Source: Candidatus Culexmicrobium thermophilum
GTDB taxonomy: Archaea; Thermoproteota; Methanomethylicia; Culexarchaeales; B10-G16
Direction of reading: 5' to 3'
Assembly (NCBI GenBank): GCA_025061095.1
Contig: JANZKB010000001.1
Span: 1,078 to 65,077 of the forward strand
DNA length: 64,000 nucleotides
Shown here: piece after piece, positions 18,864-59,250 of the stretch
Layout: each line of letters begins with the position of its first letter
Position numbering within the stretch: position 1 is the first letter of the stretch
Translations under genes and position numbers: made by a program
The notes under the pieces: model-generated
Databases searched by the model: none
What the model was told of the DNA's origin: nothing
The model's input: the letters and a program-made list of their open reading frames with translations, nothing else

Positions 18864-19457
18864 ATGAGTCTTGTAGCGTTGGAGGGTATTGACAAGTCGG
18901 GGAAAGCTACACAGGCAAAAATGCTGAAAGAATGGTTGAGCACTAATGGTTTTCCAGTCGAGATCATAGCTTTCCCTGACTATTCCACACCTATTGGAAG
19001 AGAAATCAAAGCTTTTCTGACTGAGAAGATATCCTTTAACGTTGAGGTTAGACAATTACTTTATGCTGCAAATAGATGGGAGAATAAGGAGAAAATTGAA
19101 GGGATGTTGAAGGAAGGAAAGATAGTTATAGCTGATAGATATATTCCCTCTGGTTTGGCATATGGATATGCCAACGGTTTACCTTTGGATTGGATGCTCT
19201 GCCTTGAGAGAGGTTTACCTGAACCTGACATTGTAATAGTTATCGATATTTCTCCTCAGACTTCGATAAAGAGATTATCATGTGGAAAGGATCGATATGA
19301 AAAGGATGTTACATTTTTGAGTAAGGTTCGATCAAGCTATCTTTATCTGGCTAAAAAATTTAATTGGTTTATAGTTGAAGGTGAAAGAAGCGCTTTAGAG
19401 ATATTTGAGGATATTAAGAATATTCTTTTCACCAATCTCAAGCTATTAACCGATTAG
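18864..19457 (+). CDS. tmk: thymidylate kinase
   Basis: ALEGIDKSGK P-loop; internal ATG 18864 chosen to avoid overlap with convergent HD gene. Confidence 0.7.
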   Translation: MSLVALEGIDKSGKATQAKMLKEWLSTNGFPVEIIAFPDYSTPIGREIKAFLTEKISFNVEVRQLLYAANRWENKEKIEGMLKEGKIVIADRYIPSGLAYGYANGLPLDWMLCLERGLPEPDIVIVIDISPQTSIKRLSCGKDRYEKDVTFLSKVRSSYLYLAKKFNWFIVEGERSALEIFEDIKNILFTNLKLLTD

Positions 19458-20909
19458 ATTCTTCCAAATCTTCGGCGGATTACGCCACCTCCATAATCCA
19501 TATCTCAACCATTTCTCATTGAATCCTTTATTTTTCATCCAACATTTCAACGCTCTTTCCCATTTATCCCAGAGATCAGGATGTGTTTTGCTTACATTTA
19601 GAAGATCGGCCATGTCGCTGGCAGGACATAGGAAGCAACCTATTCTAACATAATTTCTGAAATAGAGTGGATTTACCGATAATTTTTGGATTCCAATATA
19701 CGCCCAAACTTCGAGAGCAGTCCAATCTCTAATGGGATTAACCTTTAGTTGCCCTTTAATGTAATGTGTTTCCGCCACTTTGGGTTCATATGCCCTCCAA
19801 TAGGATTCATATTTTCTTTGGCCTAGAAAGGTTAAGCATCGCCCATTTAAATACTCCTTTACAATTTCCTGCATAGATGAAAGTTTGCAGCTTTTACAGC
19901 ACCATCTATAATCTCTTCCAGGAGGACCTAGACGTTCAAAGAGACTCCAGAAATCATTTCGGCTTTTCTTGTAAATTAATAAGTTTTCAACATTGAGGTC
20001 TCTTAAAAAATCATGGATATATCTTATTGTTTCAGGAAATTCGATTCCCGTGTCGAGAAAAACTATCTTGACTTTATCGATCCCAGCTTCTAAGACTAAT
20101 GATAATAGGCATGCACTATCTTTTCCACCGCTGAAAGAAATACTCCTCCCATAACTCCAATATCTATCTACAGTTTTCGAAATGAATTTTATTGTTTTCT
20201 CAGATCTCTCTTCTATTTCACCTTTATTTGCCTTTAGAAAATCGCTCCAAGTACTCTTTGAAGAATTCTCTTTAATCTTGCTTTCATCCACTATTTCTTT
20301 AACTTTGATTGCCATTCCGTTGCGCATCCTCCTGATTTCACGGCTGCTGAATCTCGCTTTCCCCACTGCTACCACGTCACCTCTCCTTGAAACTACTATC
20401 ACATAGTCACCTCTCTCCACGTTTCCATCAATGCTTTTAATGCCTCCAACCATAATGTTCATTCCGTTACGGATTGCTTTTACAGCGCCTTCATCAATCA
20501 GAACCCGTTTTCCACCTCCATAACAGTTTATTCTTTTAGCTCCCTCACTCTTCGGCATAAATCGCCATCGTGTAAGATCAAAGAATACAGCTCCTATCGG
20601 ATATCCATCTACTATTATCTCCTCCATTCTATCTAGCCAAGGTATTTTGTTTATGAGAATTATTTTATCGTCAGGAAGCAGTTTTTTACCTATTCCATTT
20701 CCATATTCGTTGTCAATGATATTTCTCATCAAGTTTAGATCTTCTCTCCAAGCTGGTCTAACATCTCCAGGTAATGAGAGAATAAGTCTTCGTCCCTTTT
20801 CATGACATCTTGGACATAACTGTTTAAGTATAGGCATGTTGCAGTAGTCGCACCACCAAATATTTTTATTGGCTACTTTGAATAGATATCTGCTAATCTT
20901 ACGGGGCAT
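19446..20909 (-). CDS. Zn-ribbon + PUA domain + PAPS-reductase-like PP-loop ATPase
   Basis: N-terminal CxxC...CxxC, PUA-like middle, SGGKDS PP-loop. Confidence 0.55.
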   Translation of the reverse strand: MPRKISRYLFKVANKNIWWCDYCNMPILKQLCPRCHEKGRRLILSLPGDVRPAWREDLNLMRNIIDNEYGNGIGKKLLPDDKIILINKIPWLDRMEEIIVDGYPIGAVFFDLTRWRFMPKSEGAKRINCYGGGKRVLIDEGAVKAIRNGMNIMVGGIKSIDGNVERGDYVIVVSRRGDVVAVGKARFSSREIRRMRNGMAIKVKEIVDESKIKENSSKSTWSDFLKANKGEIEERSEKTIKFISKTVDRYWSYGRSISFSGGKDSACLLSLVLEAGIDKVKIVFLDTGIEFPETIRYIHDFLRDLNVENLLIYKKSRNDFWSLFERLGPPGRDYRWCCKSCKLSSMQEIVKEYLNGRCLTFLGQRKYESYWRAYEPKVAETHYIKGQLKVNPIRDWTALEVWAYIGIQKLSVNPLYFRNYVRIGCFLCPASDMADLLNVSKTHPDLWDKWERALKCWMKNKGFNEKWLRYGLWRWRNPPKIWKNLIG

Positions 20910-22175: not shown

Positions 22176-22237
22176 ATAATCTTAACCACTTTATTTTCCA
22201 ACAAACTTAAATTTTAACTGTAATATCTATAAGATGG

Positions 22238-22311
22238 GCCGGGGTAGCTCAGCATGGTAGAGCGGCGGGCTGTTAACCCGTTGGTCGCAGGTTCAAGTCC
22301 TGCCCCCGGCG
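22238..22311 (+). tRNA. tRNA-Asn (GTT)
   Basis: cloverleaf: acceptor GCCGGGG/CCCCGGC, D stem GCTC/GAGC, anticodon loop CTGTTAA, T loop TTCAAGT; CCA encoded after discriminator G. Confidence 0.85.
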
Positions 22312-22361
22312 CCACATTAAGGGAAAACCTAATAATATGAAAATATGTGAGAAATATATGG

Positions 22362-22435
22362 GGGCCCGTAGCTTAGCTCGGTAGAGCACCCGGCTCATAA
22401 CCGGGGGGTCGTGGGTTCGAATCCCACCGGGCCCA
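22362..22435 (+). tRNA. tRNA-Met or Ile2 (CAT), elongator type
   Basis: acceptor GGGCCCG/CGGGCCC, anticodon loop CTCATAA, T loop TTCGAAT; lacks initiator features. Confidence 0.8.
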
Positions 22436-22568
22436 TTTTTAGCTCATTATGATCCATTTTATTTTCTTAGCTTCTTGAAGTGAAACTGTTTCGCCAAGTT
22501 AACTGTTTCTTTGTTCGATAAATATTTATTATGTTTTTATTGTCATTTTTTGTCGATGAGTGTCTTTA

Positions 22569-22733
22569 ATGGAAGAGCTATTGAAGCCCAGTGAAGTTAT
22601 GAGGTTGTTGAAGATTAGTCGCAGAACTTTCTATCGCTGGATTAGCGAGGGTAAGATTAGGGTTGTTCGTCTTCCTAGTGGTCAGTATAGGGTTCCCAAG
22701 AGCGAAGTTGAAAAGCTTTGCAGAGAGCAGTAG
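22569..22733 (+). CDS. MerR/excisionase-like HTH protein (54 aa), resembles N-terminal HTH of IS607 TnpA serine recombinase
   Basis: MEELLKPSEVMRLLKISRRTFYRWISEGKIRVVRLPSGQYRVPKSEV; below the 60-aa ORF-track cutoff. Confidence 0.55.
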   Translation: MEELLKPSEVMRLLKISRRTFYRWISEGKIRVVRLPSGQYRVPKSEVEKLCREQ

Positions 22734-23820
22734 TTGTTAAGGCTTATAAGGTTCCAGTAAAAGCTCCACTAGACCTTATTGAAGCTTACTTCGAGGTTAA
22801 GAAGAAAGCTTTAAGTGGAGTTTTGAAGCATGTCAAGTATTCTAGTAGTAGAAAAGCACACTTACATTTCAATAAGGATGAGAGGAGAAAGCTGAGAAGT
22901 AAGTTGCTGGAGAAGTGGAAGTACTCTAAGCACTACGTTGACTCAGCAATAAACTCGGTCATAGGCTTAGTCAAGGGGTGGGTTAAGCTATACAATAGAG
23001 GAAAAGCAAAATCAAAACCTGAAATCACTAAGAAAAACGTCTACATCAAGACAACTCTCTTCACATGCAAGAATGAAGTACTGAAAGTCAGTATTGAGCC
23101 GAGAAGAAGATACCTCGTAGTTGACTTAAAGGAGTTTGAGTGGCTACCAAGAGACTATACTTCAATTGGAGGGCTAATACTAAAGGAGGGCGAGCTGATT
23201 ATCACATTTAAGAAGGAAGTTAAATTGAAAGCTGAGAAGTGGAGTAGCTTTGATGTAAACTTAACTAACATAACAGCACTAATCAACGACGAAGTAGTCA
23301 AATTCTGCTTAAAGCCACTATATCACATTCACAGAGTCTATGAAATTAAGAGGAAGAAGATACAGAAGCTCTTTAAAAGCAAGCCAAAGACAGCTAGGAG
23401 GCTAATGGAGAAGTACAAAATGCGTGAAAGAAATAGAGCTAGAGACTTCATGCACAAGTTGACGACTAAGATAGCTAGAATGCTAGTTGAAATTAAGAGC
23501 GAGCAATACTGGAAGACTTGAAAGGAATAAAAGGCAGAACACTCAGCAAGTCCAAGAAGCTCAATCGCAAACTATCAAAGTGAAATGCTAGAACATTTCA
23601 GTTCATGCTTAAATATAAGTTAAAGTGGCTCGGATTACCAGTTAAATATGTTAATCCAGCTAATTCGTCTAAGACCTGCCCCTTCTGTCAGGCTACCATG
23701 GTAGCCTATCGGGGCAGATTGATGAAGTGTAAAAAATGTGAGTTTATTATGGATAGAGACATTGTGGCTGTTTTAAACCTTCAGATGTGGGGCTCAGGGT
23801 TACCCCGAAAGCTCCATTAG
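22718..23820 (+). pseudogene. tnpB: IS605/IS607-family TnpB (OrfB) transposase-associated gene, disrupted by a frameshift (~23520) and a TGA nonsense codon (23581-23583)
   Basis: KAYKV N-terminus; C-terminal Zn-finger segment SSKTCPFC...CKKCEF...DRDIVAVLNL split into a separate ORF. Confidence 0.7.
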
Positions 23821-24066
23821 AGCCTTCAAGCTCGATGATGGAGAAACGGTTGATAGACCAAAATTCACATTTATCTATAAAAGCCTATCAATCATGAACC
23901 CCATCAATTTATATTCCAAATGTTCAGGATATCAATTTAAATTTACTTTTGGTGGTCTTAGCTCAAACAGTACTTACCTTCTCTAATGCGATATTGGCTA
24001 CTTGTTTAGCGGTTAACGAATGTTTTTCCTAATAGGAAGATTAAAGAAGAGAACCTTGCGGTAAAT

Positions 24067-24444
24067 ATGGGGTTTATGAATGTTTTTCTCCCATTTATAG
24101 GGGGTGTTTCGATGTGTCATGGTGCTGGGGACTTTGCTTCTCAATACTTTTGGAGGGAGAACAGGAGAGCTATGATAATGGAGGGATTAATTGAAATTTT
24201 TGCTCTATTTCTATCAGATTCTATAACAACAGTTTTCAAGGTTTTCCAATATCAATATTGGTATAATGCTTCTCTTTGCAAGCTTAAAACTTGGAAAATT
24301 ATGGTTAAACTTAGAGGATTAGTGTTAATTGAAGTATTAACTATTGGAGCAACATCATTTTTCACAAATTTGGCAGTAGGTTTTCTAGCAGGTGTAATAT
24401 TACATTATTTTATAAATAGAATGACAGTTTACAGGGTGAAGTAA
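24067..24444 (+). CDS. small membrane protein, hypothetical
   Basis: 125 aa with 3-4 hydrophobic segments. Confidence 0.35.
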   Translation: MGFMNVFLPFIGGVSMCHGAGDFASQYFWRENRRAMIMEGLIEIFALFLSDSITTVFKVFQYQYWYNASLCKLKTWKIMVKLRGLVLIEVLTIGATSFFTNLAVGFLAGVILHYFINRMTVYRVK

Positions 24445-24457
24445 AATTTAATTATGG

Positions 24458-24559
24458 TGCGGGGGGTGGGATTTGAACCCACGCAGGCCTACGCCACGAG
24501 GGATTTCCGGATTTCTCCTCCTGAACCTCGCGCCTTTGACCTGACTCGGCCACCCCCGC
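24458..24559 (-). tRNA. tRNA-Leu (CAG) with ~18-nt intron in anticodon loop
   Basis: minus-strand cloverleaf: acceptor GCGGGGG, anticodon stem CGAGG/CCTCG, loop TTCAGG+intron, long variable arm, T loop TTCAAAT, CCA encoded. Confidence 0.75.
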
Positions 24560-24590
24560 CACAATACCTTTTATTTTCCCCTGCTATTTA

Positions 24591-25619
24591 TTGTTTAATG
24601 TTGATGTGGCAATGACGCTTGATTGGAGGATTAAATGCTTAATACTTCATGGTAAAAATGATGATGAAATTTTAAGGCTTCTTAGAGGCGTTAAGTTCAA
24701 TTCAACTATTATTAGAGAGAGAATAAAGAGGGTGAGGAGGAAGATTTTACAAGATGTTTTACGTGATTTATTACTGCAAGGATATGGATTAAATGATATT
24801 TTAATGGAGTTAAGTCAATGTAAAAAATGCTTTGAAAACATCGACTTATCGTTTACAGTTAGAAATTTTATGGAATCTCATTTTGCTGTTGAACCTTCCA
24901 TTAAACCGGCCTCTCTGAAAAAACTCATAGAAATGTTTTCGGAAATTTCAAGGGGAAAATTATTTATCTCTATGGAGCAGAGAGGGCTTATATTTTCACT
25001 TAAGATTTATGGCGACCGCACTCCACCTATGTATTGTGATCTTGAAATTAGCATAGAGAAATATGATGTAGCTCAGAGAAGTCTTCTCATCCGCTTCTTA
25101 GATGGAATTAAAGAGTTCTCGTCAAGCGATTTTAAGAAGGAAATGATTAAATTATTAAAGCTTTATGGTGGTGAAGTTGCTAAGTTCGACATTTTAACAC
25201 TAGTTATGAAATATATTGATGATGATATGCGAAAATATTTGCTTAATGGAATGGGAAAGGAGGAGGCAATGAAAAAGTTAAGATTGAAATATTCAGGAAT
25301 TCTTGATAAAATAATGAGGGTTGAGGGTTCTCTATCCCCTGTGGATAGGGAGTTTAGAAAGGCATGGAACTCCATAATGTCTGATGATAGTTTAATATTT
25401 AAGGAGCATGCTCTCCGCAGGATCGGTACAAACCGCTTTATAATTGAAACTCCCCGATGCTATTTTCCAAATTATTCTCTTGATATTGCTGTTTTAATGT
25501 GGACTTCAGATGTTAGAGATTTGCTTTTAAATCTTTTTCACACCTTAGCCGTTCAAGGGTTAAAATCGTTTCATAAATGGATCGATGAATGGCTGGAAAA
25601 GTTAATCTCAAGAAAATAG
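24591..25619 (+). CDS. hypothetical protein (342 aa)
   Basis: long ORF, host codon usage, no motif recognised. Confidence 0.4.
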   Translation: MFNVDVAMTLDWRIKCLILHGKNDDEILRLLRGVKFNSTIIRERIKRVRRKILQDVLRDLLLQGYGLNDILMELSQCKKCFENIDLSFTVRNFMESHFAVEPSIKPASLKKLIEMFSEISRGKLFISMEQRGLIFSLKIYGDRTPPMYCDLEISIEKYDVAQRSLLIRFLDGIKEFSSSDFKKEMIKLLKLYGGEVAKFDILTLVMKYIDDDMRKYLLNGMGKEEAMKKLRLKYSGILDKIMRVEGSLSPVDREFRKAWNSIMSDDSLIFKEHALRRIGTNRFIIETPRCYFPNYSLDIAVLMWTSDVRDLLLNLFHTLAVQGLKSFHKWIDEWLEKLISRK

Positions 25620-37462: not shown

Positions 37463-37587
37463 GCACCGCCAGCACACCCCTTTCCCAGTGCCTCTCGGAC
37501 ACCAGTACTCGGAAGTGCGGCAGTAGGCTTAACTTCCGGGTTCGGAATGAGACCGGGTGTTTCCCTACTGCCTATGGCCGGCGGTGC
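37463..37587 (-). rRNA. 5S ribosomal RNA (stand-alone)
   Basis: reverse complement reads GCACCGCCGGCCATAGGC...CCGGTCTCATTCCGAACCCGGAAGTTAAGC...GCTGGCGGTGC with pairing termini (helix I). Confidence 0.85.
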
Positions 37588-37680: not shown

Positions 37681-37791
37681 GCCGGGGTCGCCTAGCCTGG
37701 CCCAGGGCGCCGGACTCATAATCAGAAAGGATTGAGGGGTTAAGAAAACGGTGAATTCCGGTTTCCGCGGGTTCGAATCCCGCCCCCGGCA
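37681..37791 (+). tRNA. tRNA-Met (CAT) with ~35-nt intron at/near the anticodon loop
   Basis: acceptor GCCGGGG/CCCCGGC, anticodon stem CCGGA/TCCGG separated by CTCATA+intron, T loop TTCGAAT. Confidence 0.75.
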
Positions 37792-59086: not shown

Positions 59087-59250
59087 GGGGCCGAAATTTC
59101 GGGTTGGGACATATGAGAGCAATAAGCCGTAGCTCAGTAAGGGAGAGCGGCGGGCTCCAGAGCTTGCCAGCTTAAAGACCGATAAGGGATGATATAGCTC
59201 TGGAGCGCAGAGAAACCCGTTGGTCGTGGGTTCAAATCCCACCGGCCCCA
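59087..59250 (+). tRNA. tRNA-Trp (CCA) with two introns (one in acceptor stem/position 7-8 region, one in anticodon loop)
   Basis: exons GGGGCCG...TAGCTC AGTAAGGGA GAGC G GCGGG CTCCAG...A CCCGT TGGTC GTGGG TTCAAAT CCCAC CGGCCCC A CCA; 36-nt and ~53-nt intervening sequences. Confidence 0.7.

Follow-up and report, generated by a model that had tools for sequence, protein, structure and literature searches.

A dead IS607-like TnpB element with a DNA-binding-domain-only partner gene between convergent tRNA genes of Candidatus Culexmicrobium thermophilum

Two tRNA genes of Candidatus Culexmicrobium thermophilum converge upon a 2-kb interval in the stretch of 64,000 nucleotides that was analysed as a whole (the window). 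A preliminary description had read this interval as the outcome of repeated insertion and decay at a tRNA hotspot and had found in it the stub of an IS607 transposase. The locus raises the question of how many mobile elements the interval holds, whether its short helix-turn-helix (HTH) gene is the leftover of a longer transposase gene, and whether the tRNA genes directed the insertion.

Contents of the interval between the tRNA genes

The interval spans 2022 bp (22436–24457). Its left flank is a tRNA gene with a CAT anticodon (22362–22435, + strand; ARAGORN; Rfam, 73.1 bits), which encodes the elongator tRNA-Met or possibly tRNA-Ile2. On the right it is flanked by a 102-nt tRNA-Leu(CAG) gene (24458–24559, − strand; Rfam, 48.5 bits), for which direct reading of the sequence revealed a long variable arm and a 17-nt intron (24503–24519) at the canonical 37/38 position. 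This intron-bearing gene was missed by ARAGORN and found via Rfam, and its orthologues in three relatives (L022, L024 and L025) are intronless genes of 85 nt. Rfam and the direct reading agreed with the convergent tRNA-Met(CAT) and tRNA-Leu(CAG) pair of the preliminary description, with both 3′ ends directed into the interval.

The interval is composed of one dead copy of an IS607-like TnpB element (~22493–23902, + strand, ~1.41 kb) and the C-terminal remnant of a native transporter gene. The element runs from a left end with a TATA-like box through a winged-HTH (wHTH) gene and a tnpB pseudogene to a structured 3′ RNA, and no further copy of it was found in the 64-kb window by blastn, tblastn or the model of this RNA. 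Three ORFs are recognisable in the interval, and their Pfam matches were to HTH, TnpB and MOT1 families only. The G/C-rich codon usage noticed earlier for the whole interval holds for the HTH and tnpB genes (GC3 of 0.50 and 0.46–0.47, respectively, against 0.29–0.34 in neighbouring genes) and fails for the transporter remnant (0.27); in overall GC, the element (0.39) matches the mean of the window (0.383).

The transporter remnant (23946–24444, + strand) lies outside the mobile element and includes what had been described as a small membrane ORF. The ORF is present (125 aa, 24067–24444) and scored 27.5 bits against PF16983, for which the cut-off is 30. When a frameshift near 24018–24029 was repaired, the score became 49.1 bits (profile positions 3–95 of 111) and the start moved to 23946, which identifies the ORF as the tail of a MOT1-family transporter. 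The remnant contains one MFS_MOT1 domain and a C-terminal tail, whereas an intact gene would hold two domains. The N-terminal half was found neither in the interval nor in the rest of the window, and only 57 nt separate the tRNA-Met gene from the left end of the element. With its host-like GC3, the remnant is that of a native molybdate/sulfate-type MFS transporter gene.

The tnpB pseudogene and the ends of the element

The tnpB pseudogene (22718–23820, + strand; Pfam OrfB_IS605 and Cas12f1-like_TNB) was delineated by three-frame translations and tblastn. Its N-terminal part is a 267-aa ORF (22718–23521), its zinc-ribbon/RuvC-III part is 71 aa long (23605–23820; PF07282, 65.9 bits), and PF01385 was matched as well. 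Two lesions, a frameshift of 1 nt near 23495 and a TGA in frame (23581–23583) at a position that is Trp in relatives, confirm the preliminary reading of this gene as a TnpB pseudogene. By tblastn it is 60% and 63% identical, in two frames, to the intact 432-aa TnpB of a related locus (L007). The RuvC D-E-D triad and zinc ribbon of TnpB/OMEGA nucleases are present: the D, E and D positions remain readable in the window copy, pseudogene though it is, and D179, E266 and D346/D348 are invariant in the TnpB family alignment (A1). An intact relative passed the guided_TnpB model NF040570 (106.9 bits, cut-off 100), and the intact L007 TnpB scored far under the cut-off of the IS607-type TnpB model NF038280 (52.8 vs 350 bits). 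The TnpB belongs to a divergent archaeal clade with a PF27234 (MJ0013) N-terminal region.

The decay suspected earlier was evident from strain variants of the locus (L021, L029 and L030), which hold further lesions. The TGA is common to all of them and the other lesions differ; the HTH gene of L021, for example, has an in-frame 27-bp deletion and three substitutions, of which two or more change the amino acid. These comparisons show that the Trp-to-TGA change inactivated the element and that strain-specific frameshifts and deletions have accumulated since. At this locus, the element is an ordinary dead insertion sequence.

The left end (22493–22559, + strand) was placed by repeat listing and by aligning the upstream flanks of 11 loci, in which conservation starts at G(C/A)C and the sequences before that are unrelated. 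In the window, the family-conserved block GCCAAGTTAACTGTTTC at 22493–22509 is followed by a TATA-like box (~22517–22530), upstream of the HTH start. The left boundary is uncertain by ~10 nt, with a second copy of AACTGTTTC at 22484–22492; this sequence is found twice at the left end in the window and once in other members, and its complement, with one mismatch, occurs in the right end. The left end begins with G-CC in nine of ten distinct left-end sequences and with GAC in the decayed L015, and the right end terminates in ...GAAC-CC in 7/7 loci. These ends are compatible with a CC (=GG) at both termini, which as a dinucleotide holds very little information. Terminal inverted repeats are absent, as the left GCCAAGTTAAC... 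is not complementary to the right ...CAATCATGAACCCC, and there is no target duplication, the flanks ...CTGTTTC before the element and ATCAATTT after it being different. Together, the alignments showed that the element is sharply bounded by sequences conserved in the family, GCC... at its left end and ...GAACCC at its right.

The right end contains a conserved structured RNA (23760–23902, + strand), which was mapped by downstream flank alignment, RNAalifold and a search with model R1. RNAalifold gave 24 pairs, 12 of them with compensatory changes; 95% of the cells were paired compared with 36–50% in slid controls, and the observed value was reached in 0 of 500 shuffles. Model R1, from which the window had been left out, found 23760–23902 as its only match in 64 kb (82.7 bits, E = 1e-21), a score that partly reflects protein conservation as the first ~60 nt of the model overlap coding sequence. 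In the terminal 10-bp stem, 23846–23855 pairs with 23886–23895; it is followed by the element terminus GAACCCC (23896–23902) and, from 23903, by the presumed guide. No Rfam omega-RNA or RAGATH-type family matched the interval or nine related loci at a permissive threshold. From its position and covariation we infer that the 3′ RNA is a putative omega-RNA scaffold, which overlaps the tnpB 3′ end and ends at the right boundary.

The short HTH gene as partner of TnpB

The wHTH gene (22560–22733, + strand) is an intact ORF of 57 aa from GTG, or of 54 aa from the ATG at 22569, and its last 16 nt, stop included, overlap the start of tnpB. The product matched HTH_17 (51.9 bits) and TIGR01764 (43.6 bits, cut-off 28.8) and failed the BldC-specific model NF033787 (39.1 bits, cut-off 77). 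Against the IS607 transposase model NF033518 it aligned to positions 2–46 of 187 with 32.4 bits (cut-off 110), and it is 44–49% identical to residues ~1–62 of full HTH+Resolvase proteins. The predicted structure (AF2, pLDDT 93) superposed on BldC (6AMA) with a TM score of 0.85 and an rmsd of 1.2 Å in Foldseek, where Pukovnik Xis and the GIsul2 excisionase were also matched. By TIGR01764 and AF2/Foldseek, the protein passes as a stand-alone MerR-type winged HTH of ~50–70 aa (excisionase/BldC-like), and its closest homologues are all 54–64 aa long. Thus, it has a MerR/Xis/BldC-like fold and is homologous to the DNA-binding domain of IS607 TnpA. The fold itself is generic, and close relatives of this HTH also adjoin unrelated genes.

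Whether this gene is a stub, as had been proposed, depends on what it looks like elsewhere. The preliminary description was right about the similarity to the N-terminus of IS607 TnpA (NF033518, 2–46). The stub part of the claim would require that a complete IS607 with TnpA and TnpB inserted here and lost the catalytic domain during decay, a scenario that the identity to the TnpA DNA-binding domain, the tnpA position of the gene and the plain decay of the remainder of the element would suit. We consider it extremely improbable, as the same short ORF precedes tnpB and overlaps its start in 11/11 family loci from at least six archaeal lineages, those with an intact tnpB included. In L007–L010, for example, one of the closest homologues of the HTH overlaps an intact 432-aa TnpB. 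Furthermore, the dN/dS of the HTH in pairs with unsaturated dS was found to be 0, 0.04, 0.05 and 0.07, which indicates purifying selection at the sequence level and speaks against truncation. The serine-recombinase catalytic domain was searched for with five full-length proteins that begin with the HTH and have the size of IS607 TnpA (three of which match Pfam Resolvase), and was absent in every frame from the interval and from all 11 family loci. The full HTH+Resolvase proteins aligned to the window and the family loci over their first ~50–60 residues only (44–52% identity); the sole exception beyond ~60 residues was L027, the source contig of P0265, which is outside the family. The short form is therefore the selected norm of the family, and a local loss of the TnpA catalytic domain is refuted by the short HTH in all 11 family loci. 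The loss of the catalytic domain would instead be a single event, no later than the origin of the family. As no locus of the 11 has this domain, the element is not autonomous by the IS607 mechanism.

The association does not depend on the HTH as a query. A search seeded with TnpB peptides alone recovered seven loci in GTDB genomes (Archaeon HR04, Caldarchaeum, Desulfurococcaceae, Terraquivivens, Bathyarchaeia, Archaeoglobaceae and one unclassified archaeon), and the short HTH ended inside the tnpB start in 7/7. The TnpB family is patchy across distant phyla at 60–73% identity, with unrelated flanks and frequent pseudogenes; L015 and L019 are decayed family copies, and near-identical copies on metagenome contigs from the GBS hot spring differ in their flanks on both sides. 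The clade had no match in the viral contigs scanned, and no full TnpA that has matching ends and could act as an autonomous partner was found. These results together showed that, in this TnpB clade, the HTH-only gene is the standard partner and is under selection: in hot-spring archaea, the clade always occurs with the DNA-binding domain of the IS607 transposase, kept by selection as a gene of its own, and never with a recombinase.

Such a unit could also be a domesticated host module of which the window holds a dead copy, for instance an RNA-guided system for regulation or defence that comes with a transcription factor of its own. The lack of an encoded recombinase and the purifying selection on the HTH are in keeping with this, and there are precedents in the exapted TnpB known as TldR (PMC10705468) and in Arc and CvkR, small regulators that are linked to TnpB or Cas12k. 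The RuvC D-E-D triad and the zinc ribbon are, however, invariant in the intact members, unlike in nuclease-dead exapted forms; the patchy distribution over distant phyla, the unrelated flanks, the sharp ends and the frequent pseudogenes are those of a mobile element, and in the window the unit has foreign GC3 and is absent from syntenic relatives. Domestication is thus a doubtful explanation, to which we give little credence. A mobile origin is preferred, and no description of an HTH-only+TnpB element was found in the literature searched. We tentatively suggest, as a possibility that is still short of an even chance, that these elements are a separate and so far undescribed class derived from IS607 and spread horizontally among thermophilic archaea, a class in which the TnpA DNA-binding domain serves as an end-binding regulator or a recombinase-borrowing adaptor and persistence is mainly by TnpB/omega-RNA homing.

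The resemblance to the IS607 family (IS607, IS1535 and ISC1926, with serine-recombinase TnpA and TnpB) extends beyond the HTH itself, whose identity to TnpA DNA-binding domains is given above. As in those elements, an HTH-bearing orfA precedes and overlaps tnpB, and terminal inverted repeats and target duplication are lacking. IS607 elements have neither terminal inverted repeats nor target-site duplication, and the same GG (CC) stands at either terminus in agreement with a GG target (PMC6188088); the CC/GG of the present termini is compatible with this. The subterminal motifs of the present ends may correspond to the short subterminal direct repeats to which TnpA binds in the IS607 family. 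The difference is that the orfA product here ends after the DNA-binding domain, whereas IS607 TnpA adds a C-terminal catalytic domain. An IS607-type recombinase supplied in trans would fit the terminal CC (=GG) dinucleotides and the lack of inverted repeats and target duplications, and movement would then require a full serine recombinase of this type from elsewhere in the cell.

The IS1341-type “tnpB-only” elements of the IS200/IS605 family lack a recombinase, are presumed to use a trans-acting transposase and have a 3′ omega-RNA. The present family is like them in being a recombinase-less TnpB element with a probable 3′ omega-RNA, but an HTH gene under selection is always added, and the ends resemble those of IS607 and are not hairpins of the IS605 type. 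In live members, a promoter within the left end would drive an HTH-tnpB operon, and TnpB with the 3′ omega-RNA would act as an RNA-guided nuclease that aids retention or homing of the element. The HTH protein may bind the left-end block (GCCGTAGTYARCAGTTTC) beside the TATA box and may function as an autorepressor and/or an end-recognition factor, by analogy with BldC, Xis, Arc and CvkR. With BldC and Xis it shares a minimal MerR-like winged HTH, a similar-sized stand-alone domain; it differs in failing the BldC family model, in having no integrase partner and in its TnpB-element context. Arc, a ribbon-helix-helix (RHH) protein, is a small transposon-encoded repressor in IS605-family elements (bioRxiv 10.64898/2026.09.24.754181). 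Like Arc and the MerR-type CvkR of type V-K CAST, the HTH is a small DNA-binding protein encoded beside an RNA-guided nuclease gene within a transposon, and here a conserved candidate operator adjoins the promoter at which the HTH would putatively repress; Arc has a different fold, and the Arc and CvkR elements retain transposases. The family suggests that the DNA-binding domain of a transposase may serve as a regulator or adaptor, and it is a natural experiment in the persistence of TnpB elements that lack a transposase of their own. Furthermore, it offers compact thermophilic TnpB/omega-RNA pairs with defined ends.

Origin of the insert and the role of the tRNA genes

No true empty site was recovered among the GTDB genomes and JGI metagenomes scanned. 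The 487-aa neighbour had no match in the GTDB genome scan, and the 335-aa neighbour, an orphan in a set of 5.8 billion proteins, matched only a single 98%-identical strain in the JGI metagenome scan. Because these scans gave no empty site, synteny was taken from the nearest relatives with conserved gene order, which are 45–52% identical in a conserved protein. In one of them (L022), the order is UPF0147, tRNA-Asn, tRNA-Met, tRNA-Leu and a 340-aa orthologue, and its tRNA-Met/tRNA-Leu spacer of 335 bp has no HTH, TnpB or MOT1 match. Across the relatives the spacer between the same tRNAs is 122, 335 or 622 bp (the longest contains an ORF of 94 aa), and in L023 and L026 unrelated genes follow tRNA-Met with no adjoining tRNA-Leu. 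These comparisons upheld the view of the interval as a lineage-specific insert, its HTH, tnpB and MOT1 content not being shared. The foreign GC3 together with the absence from relatives sharing the flanking gene order showed that the element was horizontally acquired. An ancestral origin of the entire interval, followed by nothing more than decay, is ruled out by the L022 synteny and the GC3 contrast.

The variable spacer after tRNA-Met and the lineage-specific content would also be expected if the convergent tRNA 3′ ends formed a hotspot hit repeatedly by tRNA-targeting integrases or IS elements, with the interval as their debris. The evidence from the interval itself argues against this. Partial tRNA copies, which as duplicated 3′ halves would represent att sites, were found at chance level only (best match 18.3 bits; 30 shuffles, mean 18.6, maximum 22.3), and the interval has no integrase or other recombinase. 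It contains a single recognisable mobile element, the second remnant being a native transporter gene with host-like GC3, and so the claim of repeated insertion was not sustained. The conserved left end begins 57 nt beyond tRNA-Met, and no tRNA lies near the element at any of the 11 other family loci, in flanks of up to 3–6 kb on each side, several contigs being much shorter. For IS607-type insertion, a GG target suffices (PMC6188088). Targeting of the tRNA 3′ ends is thus not supported, and we regard a hotspot as unlikely. Archaeal integrative elements that do target tRNA genes (with SSV-type and pNOB8-type integrases) resemble the present element in their position beside tRNA 3′ ends, but they differ in the features just listed, the integrase, the att duplication of the tRNA and the association with tRNA genes.

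The locus as a whole is probably best explained by a dead, HTH-only, IS607-derived TnpB element beside the tail of a native transporter gene, with the neighbouring tRNA genes incidental. The element would have landed in or beside the transporter gene between the tRNAs, leaving a dead insertion sequence and a broken gene and not a tRNA-directed integration hotspot. A third tRNA gene, tRNA-Asn(GTT) (22238–22311, + strand; ARAGORN; Rfam RF00005, 72.8 bits), lies in the flank outside the element and within the range covered by the preliminary description (from 22236), where it was not named.

The tRNA-bracketed interval and its lineage-specific content

The interval of 2022 bp (22436-24457) lies between convergent genes for a tRNA with CAT anticodon (tRNA-Met, 22362-22435, + strand, Rfam) and tRNA-Leu(CAG) (24458-24559, - strand, 102 nt with a long variable arm), and this bracketing, noticed earlier, was confirmed by Rfam and direct reading of the sequence. 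The tRNA-Leu gene was missed by ARAGORN and detected by Rfam; its type was read from the sequence, as was a 17-nt intron (24503-24519, - strand) that follows position 37, at the canonical 37/38 site. Its orthologues in three distant relatives (L022, L024 and L025) are 85 nt long and intron-less. A tRNA-Asn(GTT) gene (22238-22311, + strand, Rfam), absent from the preliminary description, is located 50 nt upstream of tRNA-Met, and this Asn-Met pair beside the UPF0147 gene is kept in all the relatives examined (L022-L026). Elsewhere in the window, Rfam detected two more long tRNAs (37681-37791 and 59126-59246, both + strand), both missed by ARAGORN and probably intron-bearing, and a 5S rRNA gene (37464-37585, - strand).

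The window lineage is uncultured and phylogenetically isolated. No close relative was found when GTDB was scanned with one genome per species, and a conserved 487-aa neighbour (19446-20909, - strand) is only 45-52% identical to its nearest homologues, the best outside the population being 52%; identical contigs were present in several ENA and JGI metagenomes. The 843-kb contig L022 preserved the window gene order on both sides, with UPF0147, tRNA-Asn, tRNA-Met, a 335-bp spacer, a convergent intron-less tRNA-Leu and an orthologue of the 335-aa protein, and contained no match to HTH, TnpB or MOT1. The tRNA-Met/tRNA-Leu spacer was 122 bp in L024; in L025 it was 622 bp and included a 94-aa ORF. 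Other genes followed tRNA-Met in L023 and L026. Since the L022 spacer is free of HTH, TnpB and MOT1 and the relatives differ, the content of the interval is lineage-specific and the spacer variable, which agrees with the earlier view of an insert. The L024 and L025 contigs, with these unequal spacers (134-255 and 407-1028, respectively), encode an identical 491-aa PUA-PAPS reductase and share only ~85% identity over the tRNA region. The 335-aa ORF by tRNA-Leu (24612-25619, + strand) has no Pfam domain; its sole homologue in 5.8 billion proteins was a cluster of 98% identity, which NCBI assigns to a Candidatus Verstraetearchaeota MAG, and L022 has a 36%-identical orthologue in the corresponding place.

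The locus comprises a truncated native transporter gene and, beside it, an IS607-derived HTH and TnpB element that was acquired horizontally and is now dead. According to Pfam, the ORF formerly called a small membrane ORF (24067-24444, + strand) belongs to an MFS transporter gene of the MOT1 family. Once it was fused with the upstream frame across a T-run near 24018-24029, its Pfam score rose from 27.5 bits to 49.1 (cut-off 30), with the match beginning at 23946. Of the two MOT1 domains, the remnant has only one, together with the C-terminal tail. The GC3 was 0.50 for HTH, 0.46-0.47 for tnpB, 0.29-0.34 for host genes and a host-like 0.27 for the transporter remnant. GC3 thus marks the element as foreign and the transporter as native, and the repeated insertion proposed for this interval was not borne out.

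Decay and boundaries of the element

The window tnpB aligned with an intact 432-aa homologue in two different frames, with 60% identity over residues 3-258 and 63% over residues 263-363, and has a TGA (23581-23583) where relatives have Trp. The frame change (about 23495) and this one nonsense codon make it a pseudogene that retains a discernible zinc ribbon and discernible RuvC D, E and D positions. All strain variants at 98-99.9% identity contain the insertion and have this TGA in common, but their other lesions differ. The variant L021 has lost about 119-120 bp where HTH meets tnpB (about 22732-22851), carries a 27-bp in-frame deletion and three base substitutions (at least two amino-acid changing) in HTH, and has an additional G at 23500, which would compensate for the frameshift of the window; L029 and L030 have more indels. 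The shared TGA together with differing other lesions indicates that the element was inactivated before these strains diverged, and the strain-specific lesions that all its parts, HTH included, are now drifting. The decay suggested earlier was therefore upheld.

When the flanks of 11 family loci were aligned, the left flanks were unrelated until a conserved block with consensus GCCGTAGTYARCAGTTTC (22493-22509), followed by the TATA-like TTTAAATA (about 22517-22530) and the HTH start. On the right, conservation continued ~80 nt beyond the tnpB stop and ended sharply at ...GAACCC (23896-23902). The conserved block and the abrupt right end thus delimit an element of 1.41 kb (about 22493-23902). 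Neither inverted repeats nor a target duplication was found at its ends. CC (=GG), described for IS607 termini (PMC6188088), is present at both ends and fits this chemistry, though the evidence is weak. The flanks of near-identical copies from hot springs differ on either side (L007 versus L010 and L009), which suggests mobility. The sequence AACTGTTTC occurs twice at the left end, 17 nt apart (22484-22509), and the right-end RNA region contains its one-mismatch complement GAAACGGTT (23844-23852); the motif is single-copy in other family members and is a candidate binding site.

The 3' region showed a conserved fold of 24 pairs, with compensatory changes at 12, and a terminal stem of 10 bp (23846-23855 with 23886-23895). 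In this fold, 95% of cells were paired compared with 36-50% with slid partners, and none of 500 shuffles attained the observed value. A covariance model made without the window sequence matched 23760-23902 (82.7 bits, E = 1e-21) as its sole match in the 64-kb window. Judged by its position and form, this structured RNA is probably an omega-RNA scaffold.

The preliminary description had also suggested that the tRNA genes were targeted, and this was not supported. The interval was searched for tRNA fragments such as would form att sites, and the best match scored 18.3 bits, which is at chance level (shuffles: mean 18.6, maximum 22.3). The interval contains no integrase, a gap of 57 nt separates tRNA-Met from the left end, and no tRNA was found near other family members (0/11 loci) within the flanking sequence available.

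The HTH gene and its kinship with IS607

The winged-HTH ORF (22560-22733, + strand) encodes 57 aa, or 54 aa from the ATG at 22569, and its stop overlaps the start of the tnpB frame at 22718. It matched HTH_17 (51.9 bits) and TIGR01764 (43.6 bits, cut-off 28.8), a domain of excisionase type, and its match to the 187-position IS607 transposase model was confined to positions 2-46. Its AlphaFold model (pLDDT 93) superposed on BldC (TM 0.85, rmsd 1.2 A), as well as on excisionases and the DNA-binding domains of MerR proteins. When 1.84 billion representatives were searched with a profile, the more distant relatives included full-length HTH+Resolvase proteins. By tblastn, only their first ~50-60 residues aligned with the window and every family locus (44-52% identity), which supports the IS607-like assignment made earlier; their catalytic part did not align in any frame in the window or any family locus.

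The relatives of this HTH in 5.8 billion proteins were only short ones (54-64 aa), and one of these, 48% identical, overlaps the intact 432-aa TnpB on several Great Boiling Spring contigs. Scanning one GTDB genome per species with TnpB peptides as the only seeds gave seven loci, in Archaeon HR04, Caldarchaeum, Desulfurococcaceae, Terraquivivens, Bathyarchaeia, Archaeoglobaceae and one unclassified archaeon. A short HTH ORF ending inside the tnpB start was present at all seven and a recombinase domain at none; two of them (L015 and L019) were decayed. The HTH dN/dS was 0, 0.04, 0.05 and 0.07 in the four pairs with unsaturated dS. The HTH had been taken for a stub, but the short form without recombinase in all family loci and the low dN/dS contradict this: in this TnpB clade, the normal, selected partner is the DNA-binding domain of IS607 TnpA as a stand-alone copy.

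In live members, a promoter within the left end would drive the HTH-tnpB operon, and TnpB with omega-RNA would cut empty sites so that the element is retained or homed, working as IS607/TnpB elements do. The HTH protein may bind the conserved block by the TATA box and act in autoregulation, end recognition or both, a role likened to BldC and Xis, which bind DNA repeats, Arc of IS605 elements and CvkR of type V-K CAST. Transposition would require a serine recombinase in trans. Because the element has no serine-recombinase domain, it falls outside IS607 as defined. The IS1341-type elements are tnpB-only and likewise have no transposase, but the selected HTH gene is an extra in the family studied here. 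No description of the HTH-only and TnpB architecture was found in the literature searched. We consider the locus unremarkable and see the new aspect in the family architecture, a variant of known elements.

The top match of the HTH profile was P0126 (270 aa), with five tandem HTH_17 repeats, and 2-7 tandem copies of the small wHTH were common in proteins among the top 150 relatives. Close HTH relatives were also found without TnpB (L011, 708-3631; L028, 134-1045), including P0004 (45% identical) and P0136 (87 bits, among the top profile matches); one such relative is followed downstream by a 307-aa ORF that matched no Pfam family and by an XPD/DinG-like helicase, and another by an RHH protein.
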